Assembly (NCBI RefSeq): GCF_041248615.1
Contig: NZ_CP158426.1
DNA from: Escherichia coli
Lineage (GTDB): Bacteria > Pseudomonadota > Gammaproteobacteria > Enterobacterales > Enterobacteriaceae
Length of the DNA: 64,000 nt
Strand: one strand, 5' to 3'
The number at the start of each line of letters is the position of its first letter. Position 1 is the stretch's first letter. Positions 28,901-31,900 of this stretch are shown here, in pieces. The position numbers are program-made.

Positions 28901-31900
28901 GGGGCGGCCTCAGAAATTAATCTGCTTTTTTCGATGTTCATTTTCAGTCTCCGTTAGGCGGCGTTAAACGCGTCCGGGTAGAGTTTCAGAATGTCGGCAA
29001 TTTCCTGCTGAGAAAGTCCGTTGTGATCATTTATGTTCGCAAGATGGTTAACATGAGTGATCACTTTCAGAACATCACCACGGCAGGAGAAACGGTAGCG
29101 AAGGTGTGTTCCGATACCATCAGGATTCTTTTCGTCGATACGCTCCAGAGTGATTCCAAGCTGGCGTTCTAACTCTGTTGCATAGTTACGACCAGAAGAC
29201 AGACGGCAGTAGCGAAGAATGTCATTTTCTGTCCATCCCTCTATACCAGTACGCAGCATATAGACTCGGGCACGATGCTTTTTCGGTGTGCGCTTTGGTG
29301 CTTGAAGGGATTTTGTAAGGGGCGTAATATCAGATACGCGAATATCTGAATTAGCCGCCTGTAATGGGCGGTTTTTCTTTTCCATCAGGCCACCTTCCCG
29401 CGGCGTTCTGCCAGCCAGTTATTAATTTCCACCGCATCAAACGCAGTCACGTTATCTGTTAGCTTCACTGGGCGTGGAAGAGTGCCATTTTTAACCCATC
29501 TATCAATAGTAGGCAGTGAAACACCTAGCAATTCCGGCATGCGAAAGCGACGGATGTATCCAGTTGTTGGGATAGCTGATGATGCTGGCTTGTGTGCTGT
29601 CATATCTCTAGTAACCTCTCTGATAGCTCATGAAGTTACTTAAAGTTTAGTGGTTGCCCATACAGTATTTCTATTAAGACTAGAATCTATTGAAAGAAAT
29701 TATAAATCTATTGAAAAAATACCGATCCACTGAAAGATTGCAAATGCAGGTGGGATAATTATTTTCTTTATTTTCAATTAGTTACCAGTTTAAAAAATCA
29801 TTGTTTTATCAAAGAGTTATATCTTTCATCGTCATTCATCATGTTTTTACATTTCTTTTTATCTTTTATTATTCAATTGGTTGAGTCGGTTTATAATGGC
29901 TCATGATGGCTTAAAATGGCTAATGATAGCTGGCGTATCTTTTAGAGATGGGGTGATTACAGATGAACTAAGCCGAACAGATATAGCAATGGCTAGGCAT
30001 AGAATTATCTATGCTGGTGGAGATGGGTAAACAGGTAATGCCCCGCCATTGCTTTGGAGGGGCGTGAAAAGTGATTAGTCGAGATCGTGGACAGCTAATA
30101 AAGCCCGTGAGATTTTTTCTAGGAATGTGGCTTTTGCTATTCCTTTATGGGATATCCCTTCATCCTTGATTAAGGTTTCTATGTCACGGTATATAGCTGT
30201 GCGATTAGGTTTCCCATTTTGGATGTAGGAAGATGAGCCTGATTTTTTTATCAGCAGATGTACTATCAACCCCATCATTTTCATTGTCCCGTTTTCCTCA
30301 TCCTGCTTTCTATGCTGCCCACGTCCGCTGCGGTTGGTTTCTTTGATGTAGTTTACTAACTGGAGTCCTCCAAGGTTTCGGGCTTTTTCTTCCCAGCCCT
30401 TGGTGCCACGCAAATCATCAATCGCTTCTGATATTTTCTGAACAATTATTTCTGGTGTATTTGTGTCAATAAATGGGTAAGAAGCTAAGAAAATATCAAG
30501 GGCATGGCAAGGCTCGTCTTTACTAGTTTTTTCACCTCTGTACACCTTGATAGCTCTGGCAAGATGAGTTCTGACAAAATCGACATATTCGAAATTTTCC
30601 TCAGGCACATCGCTAATGCGCATAGATGGGTTTAGGCCAGCCAAGGCCACAGCCATTTCATGAGGGGTAATCGATACAGATGAACAAAGCCGTTCGATTG
30701 GCGATTTTCTCAAGATGTTGTTCACATTTGCCTCCGGGCTTTATCGAATGGCGTTACGTTGTAGTCTTTCCCGCTTTCCAGTGCCACCAGCAGATCAGCC
30801 CACTGTGCCAGCGCAGCTTTACGCTCATCAAAATACTGATGGCGGTTATAAATCCCCTCCACACCCTTAATGCGATGATTGAGGCATCGTTCCGCTACGA
30901 CAGGATCAACACCCAATGCTGCTAAATGAGTACGTGCGGTACGCCGGAAGTCGTGAATCGTGAAATTAGGCACATCCGGCATTTCGGCGCGAACCTTAGC
31001 CAGTGCTACGGGTAAAGTGCTTTCCTGAATATGTGGGATCATTCTGTTTTGCATCTTCCTGGCTGGAAGCACCCATGCGCTATTACATGAAAAGGTGTGT
31101 AGCTCTCTCAACCATTCAACGGCTGGGGAAGGTAGAGGTATATCAATAGGGTCTCCGTTTTTGCTGCGTTCTTCCGGCAAATGCCATACCGCACCATCTA
31201 AATCAAACTCTTCCCATCGTGCGGCGCATAACTCCATCTTACGAACGCATAGTGCCAGCAATAGCTTAAATGTCAGTTCGTTCTGGCGGCTGAATCCTTT
31301 TGCGGTGCGCATAGCTTCGAATAGCCTGATAAGCTCATCGCGAGTTAGCCAACGGTCGCGGGAAACCTCTTTACCACCAGCATCAGATACTTCAAACGCT
31401 GAACAAGGGTTTATCTCCAGAGCGTGGCGTTTTATCCCATAGTCAAAGATACGGCGTGTCCAGCGTAATACATCTGTTGCTATCGTTGGTGCTCCTCGGT
31501 CAACGATACCTTTCAACATGTCGTCAATGTGGCGTGGCTTAACGTCCTCCACCTTCATATGCCCAATGCAGGGGTTAATATCCTTATCAATTCTCCGGCG
31601 AAGGATATCGGGATGTTTCCATCTTGGAAGTATCTGGCGCTCGAAGTATTCGGCGGCCAGATCTGAAACGCGCATGGCGTTTTTCTCAGCCTCCATTTTT
31701 GCCAGTGCTTCAGCTTTTCGTTCCTGTTTCTCTGCTGCTACGTCATAGCCAAGAGCAACTCTGGCTGACAGCTCTTTTGCTGTTTCTCTGGCTTTTGATA
31801 GTGACAGTTCGGAGTAAGAGCCTATAACCATAGCCCGCTGCTTTCCTGCGAGCTTATAGCGGAATCGCCAGAACGGGACTGTGTAGTTTTTTGGGTAGCA

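Follow-up and report, generated by a model that had tools for sequence, protein, structure and literature searches.

Our computational analysis of a 64,000-nucleotide stretch of Escherichia coli DNA (contig NZ_CP158426.1 of assembly GCF_041248615.1; hereafter the window) centres on ORF216, a 216-aa protein encoded directly behind the integrase gene (int) of a phage satellite (30075..30725, minus strand; GTG start, TAA stop). RefSeq lists it as a 'hypothetical protein' (WP_001059729.1), and a literature search turned up no mention of WP_001059729. We found that ORF216 is linked in both directions to an array of short conserved sites over the promoter of alpA (29385..29603, minus strand), which encodes a 72-aa AlpA/Vis-like helix-turn-helix (HTH) regulator and is the first gene of the main operon of the satellite. 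From this association we consider it plausible, and put it forward tentatively, that ORF216 is made together with Int, binds the array and gates alpA; that it binds DNA, that its effect is repression and that a helper phage relieves it are steps we infer from sequence.

The site array and its link to ORF216

The array occupies 29668..29737 on the minus strand. Three co-oriented boxes of the form TTCAATRGAWT (29724-29734, 29705-29715 and 29684-29694, with spacings of 19 and 21 nt) are accompanied by a dyad (29668-29686), which reads ATTCTA-N7-TAGAAA in the window and has the family form ATTCYA-N7-TRGAAT, and are followed by CTGTAT and CACTA. Across loci the pattern recurs as two or three boxes 19-21 nt apart and the dyad, with CTG(T/G)AT 1-3 bases later and CACTA ~10 further on. 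Boxes were found in all 14 ORF216 loci (in L011, L013 and L029 by eye), and the dyad in 11 of 13 when searched as a regular expression with at most one mismatch, diverged boxes being visible in the remaining loci. The array is distinct from the replication origin (22054-22166, behind the primase gene), and an island whose primase is annotated as another type has an identical array. None of five related islands that lack ORF216 (L017, L018, L030, L031 and EcCIMP1) has the array upstream of alpA. In one of these, L031, AlpA is 80-86% identical to that of the window, L006 and L022, with an HTH stretch identical to that of L006 and L022, and the ORF216 loci themselves include at least four unrelated AlpA types. 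The array does not, by this comparison, track AlpA type, and this reshuffling of AlpA types led us to reject the boxes as AlpA's own sites. They are also unlikely to be sites for integration host factor (IHF), since by eye their most conserved positions fall on N positions of the IHF consensus.

The reverse association was examined by scanning the box-plus-dyad pattern in IMG/VR and in 100,044 species genomes, one per species, which gave 138 matches. All ten that have further boxes and enough upstream DNA carry an ORF216 homologue (hidden Markov model E-values of 1e-42 to 1e-94) that ends ~260-410 nt upstream of the array; Pantoea, Klebsiella, Izhakiella and Xenorhabdus are among the taxa named in the records. 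The other 128 matches have no ORF216 homologue and consist of 122 isolated matches, four with a single weak box in unrelated phyla and two at contig ends; 126 of them are chance matches in unrelated taxa. Within E. coli, a cassette swap described below takes out ORF216 and the array together, and in the loci examined ORF216 is the sole element-encoded protein that always accompanies the array. Because this non-coding DNA is so well kept while the proteins of the elements are 20-35% identical, the array must, on these sequence grounds, be a binding site.

The preliminary description of this DNA had noted an AT-rich neighbour of about 470 bp, and the spacer between ORF216 and alpA does measure 471 bp with 34% GC, but it is more than a spacer, being a structured alpA control region that co-occurs strictly with ORF216. 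Every ORF216 locus shares its layout of hairpin, iterons, AT-rich stretch, boxes, dyad, CTG(T/G)AT, CACTA and leader hairpin. In the window it opens with a stem-loop after the ORF216 stop (30040..30063, minus strand; -15.1 kcal/mol, weak U-tract), and comparable hairpins were seen by eye past the stop of the ORF216 homologue in most loci. The stem-loop likely ends the int-ORF216 transcription unit and separates ORF216 from alpA, which would therefore depend on its own promoter. At the other end, a hairpin in the alpA leader (29610..29640, minus strand; -14.6 kcal/mol) pairs the alpA Shine-Dalgarno sequence and is also found in islands with the alternative cassette. A ATGGCTCATGAT-like motif in the spacer, in the alpA leader and upstream of int was set aside, as it has 11 matches against 7 expected window-wide and is not kept in other loci.

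Locus-specific short repeats lie between the stem-loop and the array (29888..30002, minus strand; GGyTTAwAATGGCTmATGAT twice, and AATGGCTAGGCAT). These iterons, in tandem with a period of 10-11 nt, differ from one ORF216 locus to another (GTGTAATACA six times in L025, CCGTGCCAGT four times in L022, CTAAGGGTCT three times in L011). ORF216 might bind the iterons, or both sets of repeats, in plasmid-state maintenance, copy control or a second cis-replication region, a role that we consider very improbable. It would agree with the presence in each locus of its own iterons beside an AT-rich stretch and with the occurrence of the island as separate 12.2-kb circular and 19-kb records in two assemblies; P4, too, has a second cis-replication region in addition to its origin. 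Against it, a complete origin (22054-22166: an AT-rich core flanked by three tandem GTTGGTTCA and three inverted TGAACCAAC iterons) follows directly on the stop of the TOPRIM-DUF927 primase gene (22192-24951 in the gene calls, on the same strand as int and alpA), islands with the alternative cassette have the same replication module without these iterons, and the iterons differ between L006 and L022, whose ORF216 proteins are ~90% identical. The AT-rich region was likewise rejected as a replication origin, given the complete origin after the primase and the exchange of the region independently of the replication module.

The ORF216 gene, its family and its neighbours

ORF216 is a genuine gene under purifying selection. 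The preliminary description had its coordinates right, without naming the strand, the same coding sequence being annotated in RefSeq, and also the overlap with the integrase gene: in the GTGA at 30722-30725, the GTG of ORF216 (30725..30723) shares bases with the TGA (30724..30722) of int, which encodes a P4-type tyrosine integrase with Arm-DNA-bind_3, Phage_int_M and Phage_integrase domains (30722..31990, minus strand; 422 aa by the RefSeq extent, 450 aa in a mechanical listing of open reading frames, where it extends upstream into the probable arm sites). A Shine-Dalgarno sequence, GGAGG (30735..30731), lies 5 nt before the GTG, within the 3' end of int. The co-expression that had been expected from this overlap is supported by a tight junction conserved across loci (-4 nt in four, -1 in two, +2 in two, +11 in another and 98 nt in one). 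The ratio of nonsynonymous to synonymous differences (pN/pS) is ~0.24 for ORF216 against homologues 68-72% identical to it (nonsynonymous 0.18-0.19, synonymous saturated at 0.76-0.80) and ~0.10 between two closer homologues (0.084 and 0.80). That the reading frame is a decayed fragment or spurious, as its lack of annotation and of any known domain might suggest, is practically refuted by this selection, by ~20 full-length divergent clusters, by a confident fold model and by the conserved start and Shine-Dalgarno sequence.

When 1.84 billion cluster representatives were searched exhaustively with a profile, only 35 clusters of the family emerged, the ~20 full-length ones included. An alignment of 24 sequences covers identities of 23-100% and retains both length and motifs, which are, from N- to C-terminus, ER..IT..E.ALAL.GLNP; TPE, LGG and SGRGxHRKxDE..K..GLL..LL; and KP...IY.DI...IS.KG...STF..K. 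Conservation peaks at residues 132-162 and 1-41, and residues 42-82 are the most variable part, with a mean identity of 20%. The protein has an isoelectric point (pI) of 8.4, and its basic C-terminal third one of 9.35. An AlphaFold2 model built from the 24-sequence alignment is confident (mean predicted local distance difference test score, pLDDT, 90.5) and all-alpha, with nine helices, of which those predicted at residues 9-15 and 21-28 have helix-turn-helix geometry; no known fold was matched. The finding of the preliminary description that ORF216 has no recognisable motif extends to Pfam, NCBIfam, PADLOC and the Protein Data Bank (PDB): there was no match in Pfam, NCBIfam or the PDB, no PADLOC-DB v2 family at E<=10, which excludes only systems described by 2023, and no recognised enzymatic or effector domain or structural match. 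The one profile match is to PHROG 30524 (phrog_30524, function unknown; E 3e-34, residues 11-209 on positions 14-213 of 220), and a single record of the phage collection has a homologue, the 16.5-kb 'phage vB_KppS-Ant', which resembles a capsid-forming phage-inducible chromosomal island (cf-PICI). The HTH_17 and Phage_AlpA profiles gave no match to ORF216. A conserved R..H loop recalls HEPN abortive-infection nucleases, in which Rx4-6H stands at the start of the last helix of a four-helix bundle; this assignment was rejected because the motif in ORF216 has the wrong spacing and no fold match speaks for it. ORF216 represents an undescribed family, all-alpha as modelled and, in the loci compared here, limited to phage satellites of the integrase/AlpA type in Enterobacterales; no structural relative could be detected.

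The position of the gene is constant. In all 14 ORF216 loci, with homologues down to 23% identity, int is followed by ORF216 and then by a long spacer, and in every locus recovered the adjoining integrase is of the P4 type with the three domains given above. The spacer measures 300-690 nt and leads to alpA on the same strand in nearly all loci; an alpA gene was called downstream in 12 of the 14, L025 has an alpA-like reading frame recognised by eye, and no AlpA was called downstream of ORF216 in L029. Their sources are E. coli, Salmonella, Klebsiella, Raoultella, Buttiauxella, Pantoea, Izhakiella and Xenorhabdus, together with metagenomic contigs and 'phage vB_KppS-Ant'. Their integrases are as little as 25% identical and insert at yicC, next to der or at a tRNA gene adjoining the idn operon, and their remaining modules vary: AntA/Ash and ejection genes, Rha, a full capsid-portal-terminase set (cf-PICI) or Ogr/Delta. 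Because its position next to int and alpA is constant while the other modules vary, ORF216 belongs, by this synteny, to the integration/regulation end of satellites and not to the helper-specific end.

A place always directly 3' of a P4-type int, and usually overlapping it, implies co-ordinated synthesis and could mean that ORF216 is a partner of the integrase, a factor for the directionality, stability or targeting of integration and excision at sites of the yicC type. We find this improbable. The identities of the two proteins are uncoupled (Int 88% with ORF216 35% in one comparison, 65% with 71% in another), the gene next to an integrase that is 98-99% identical can be an unrelated one, the different integrase of EcCIMP1 works with no such neighbour, and ORF216 also accompanies integrases that use other sites (der, or the tRNA gene beside idn). 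Near att, the arms carry TATGTACAC repeats and no ORF216-type sites occur. The excisionase role is, moreover, already filled by AlpA/Vis homologues, of which P4 Vis and KplE1 TorI act as excisionases. The role of a recombination directionality factor (RDF), which the preliminary description had raised, is for its part unlikely because an AlpA/Vis-type excisionase homologue is present and ORF216 has no RDF features: such factors are basic winged-helix proteins below ~130 aa with tandem sites at the att core, and the sites linked to ORF216 lie ~2.5 kb from att.

The exchangeable cassette and the host island

The preliminary description had put the gene at the island edge, in the kind of position where variable accessory or defence genes sit. 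ORF216 is indeed near the edge, but int is the edge gene and ORF216 starts ~1.45 kb inside the right copy of the att core (32179..32199); the slot is indeed variable, but ORF216 is a recurrent int-adjacent occupant and not sporadic cargo. No specific sign of a defence function was seen, PADLOC giving no match. The exchangeable cassette spans 29574..30749, between blastn breakpoints at 30750 and 29573 of the window, and includes the final ~9 codons of int, runs through ORF216 and all of the 471-bp control region, and stops ~10 codons into alpA. Other E. coli islands, whose integrase is 98-99% identical and whose backbone is shared, have in the slot a gene for a 281-aa (L017) or 321-aa (L018) protein, so that near-identical elements hold either ORF216 alleles (100% or 68% identical) or the 281/321-aa family. 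Among 5,426 complete E. coli genomes, ~110 have the window-type cassette, 90 the 68%-identical ORF216 allele, 37 the 281-aa and 77 the 321-aa version. AlpA is ~73% identical in islands of the same integrase and backbone that carry a different cassette. Between the window and other ORF216 loci, the identities of Int, ORF216 and AlpA are 88, 35 and 58% (L008), 65, 71 and 90% (L006) and 89, 68 and 56% (L004).

Exchanges of this kind make it possible, if on balance unlikely, that ORF216 is accessory cargo with an anti-phage, superinfection-exclusion or anti-competitor function, and that the array is merely a co-travelling type of alpA promoter. Four cassette versions behind near-identical integrases in the E. 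coli genomes would fit such a function, as would the divergence of ORF216, much faster than that of Int in the comparison with L008, and co-expression with int, by which the protein would be produced, like prophage-borne defences, in the quiescent state. Staphylococcus aureus pathogenicity islands (SaPIs) carry accessory genes between int and the regulator (PMC6092414), and the related EcCIMP1 confers superinfection immunity through an unmapped gene (PMC11773190). Cargo would nevertheless not be expected to keep a fixed position, coupling and a downstream array across integrases ~25% identical, and its simple exchange would not need to replace the alpA promoter too. The searches against PADLOC, for enzymatic or effector domains and for structural matches offer it no support, and it leaves the strict two-way link with the array unexplained.

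The alternative occupants (WP_000735991 and WP_001000004; L017 12322-13167, L018 10921-11886, L030 3501-4451 and L031 3501-4457) form a family of 281-321 aa, the 281-aa and 321-aa proteins being mutually homologous (hhalign E 1.8e-25). Their model predicts a winged helix-turn-helix of beta-alpha-alpha-beta type at the N-terminus and a hypervariable, beta-rich middle, while the C-terminal helices follow the pattern of residues 137-213 of ORF216; the C-terminus is highly conserved (ERHAxNREKLFKSAIYLLSKYPDECRG...ILKHLRSAANGKG). One member has a weak PADLOC match to PDC-S31 (E 0.002). Like ORF216, these proteins sit in the slot behind the same integrase, with the motif order H..E..K..LL.K..G.K..RD.I in register; unlike it, they begin 18-95 nt from int, end only ~110 nt before alpA and have no box array. 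We do not claim homology between the two families: both ends are in register and the patterns agree, but hhalign gave E-values of 0.27-0.33 for ORF216 against the 281/321-aa family and of 0.06-0.34 overall, even when structure strings were included. Inverted repeats after the 316-aa and 318-aa genes of L030 and L031 are terminator-like and were not taken as operators.

The host island measures ~19.2 kb (12954-32199) and, by comparison with the empty K-12 site, is inserted in the last codons at the 3' end of yicC, a site that is also targeted by Vibrio mobilizable genomic islands. The left copy of the att core (12954-12974, TTATTCrATATTCTGrATCTG) forms an imperfect 21-nt repeat with the right copy, which lies within the last yicC codons, and doubled TATGTACAC repeats on both arms (32048..32072, with a partner at 13035-13059) are putative integrase arm sites. 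This geometry resembles that of other attP sites of Gram-negative phage-inducible chromosomal islands (PICIs) (PMC10111431). The terminator and last ~7 codons of yicC are swapped for island-borne sequence on integration (32100-32199; hairpin 32119-32142), and yicC therefore remains intact. Just past this island-supplied terminator, upstream of int, a small hairpin (32095-32115) shares the loop motif TCATGAGCTATCA with the alpA-leader hairpin. The gene order is int, ORF216, alpA, a 143-aa protein, AntA/B, DUF4222, Ash, small reading frames, the primase, P22-type ejection genes and PerC. The element has int, alpA and the primase gene on the same strand, an origin with iterons behind the primase, its own att site, a size within the ~10-20 kb usual for such satellites and no lysis or tail genes, and is by its gene content a Gram-negative PICI/P4-like satellite.

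From alpA on, the backbone matches EcCIMP1, which has been mobilised experimentally by the P22-like phage Kapi1 and which has a different integrase and an int-alpA interval holding only a ~67-aa reading frame (PMC11773190). As in EcCIMP1, the late zone (16771-21429, minus strand) encodes homologues of P22-type ejection proteins ('phage DNA ejection protein', DUF2824); such genes are unusual for a satellite, and their presence hints at P22-like helpers. A PerC-family regulator is encoded at the far end of the island (13443-13730, minus strand); the PerC-like gene of EcCIMP1 silences the enterocyte effacement locus (LEE) (PMC11773190). Near the PerC end of L003, an Abi-family gene (3212-4189) lies in what looks like a second variable region. 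The 342-aa 'Ash family' reading frame of the window contains matches to the C4 antisense RNA (27370-27457, minus strand; 80 bits, E 1e-14) and to isrK (27482-27558, minus strand; 63 bits, E 1e-11), a P4-type CI immunity RNA and its target-like partner, by which the island probably uses P4-like RNA-mediated transcription termination. Two separate records of the island exist besides a chromosomal copy, namely L002 (NZ_CP148430.1, 12,152 bp, circular), where most ejection-protein genes are missing, and L003 (NZ_LT599831.1, 19,226 bp, linear); they suggest an excised, probably replicating form that is abundant enough to assemble.

A candidate switch and its relation to known satellites

Translated with Int from the int promoter, ORF216 would be made in the integrated state and be present in the quiescent satellite. 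If CTGTAT and CACTA are the -10 region and the start of the alpA promoter, the dyad would lie over the -35 element and spacer, with the boxes upstream on one face of the helix, a layout typical of a cooperative repressor. Bound to boxes and dyad, ORF216 would hold the alpA promoter closed until relieved by a helper phage, whereupon expression of alpA would start excision and replication; the variable residues 42-82 may be the point of contact for a product of the helper. The proposal has its limits. No Pfam HTH domain scores above threshold in any of the 24 family members tested, the island also carries RNA immunity, related islands function without ORF216, and defence cargo is a serious rival. 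A wider version of the proposal seems doubtful to us: ORF216 would be the helper-sensing master repressor of many Gram-negative satellites (PICI, cf-PICI and P4-like), acting on the dyad and boxes over the alpA promoter and removed by a helper-phage protein, with residues 42-82 setting which helper induces and the 281/321-aa family as a very distant branch. If true, swapping the int-alpA cassette would direct a satellite to a different helper.

In Gram-negative PICIs, the existence of a repressor has been called 'unclear' and the inducer 'under study' (PMC6092414). ORF216 and the array at 29668-29737 supply a concrete candidate protein and a candidate operator for the way in which these satellites silence alpA, and natural controls exist in islands with the same integrase and backbone, a similar AlpA type and a different cassette. 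Were ORF216 cargo instead, it would be a new single-gene phage-exclusion function in ~4% of complete E. coli genomes. Under either reading, current annotation schemes overlook that the int-alpA interval is an exchangeable module.

The proposed gate can be set beside several known switches. Around the early promoter, direct repeats at intervals of about two helical turns form the operators of P2-type C repressors. The spacing of the ORF216 boxes (19-21 nt) is similar, and the array ends in addition in a dyad; P2 C itself is a classical HTH protein of ~99 aa, unrelated to ORF216. We know of no ORF216 homologue in P4, and Rousset et al. (2022) reportedly placed the P4 variable hotspot on the other side of int. 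P4 and the host island are alike in carrying a C4/isrK-type immunity RNA in an Ash/Eta-like gene and in having an operon that opens with an AlpA/Vis homologue (PMC10111431), and in both a helper-responsive promoter upstream of vis/alpA would be the decision point. The P4 promoter PLL is switched on by Ogr/Delta at TGT-N12-ACA, whereas the ORF216 loci have a phased TRGAAT array instead.

A functional analogy may be drawn with the Stl/Rpr repressors of SaPIs and other Gram-positive PICIs. Like ORF216, these are encoded between int and the excision/replication operon, are made in quiescence and are highly divergent between related islands; they are largely alpha-helical with N-terminal DNA recognition, the ORF216 model being all-alpha too, with helix-turn-helix geometry near its N-terminus, and they hold an early promoter shut until a helper phage acts, as we propose by analogy for ORF216. 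They differ in having no similarity to it in sequence or fold (a Foldseek comparison of the ORF216 model gave a single Stl match, E 5.8), in that ORF216 is co-directional with int and alpA and not divergent from the regulated operon, and in that ORF216 has no recognisable HTH domain; the known switch of Gram-negative PICIs is, moreover, an activator, AlpA. Among the latter, the integration zone of EcCICFT073 and EcCIMP1 is like that of the host island, with int and, downstream on the same strand, alpA, and the host island further resembles these PICIs in its AntA/Bro and Ash genes, a primase gene with an iteron origin behind it, PerC and an EcCIMP1-like backbone. Published descriptions of Gram-negative PICIs place nothing functional between int and alpA, and beside them ORF216 and its array are an additional, undescribed module.

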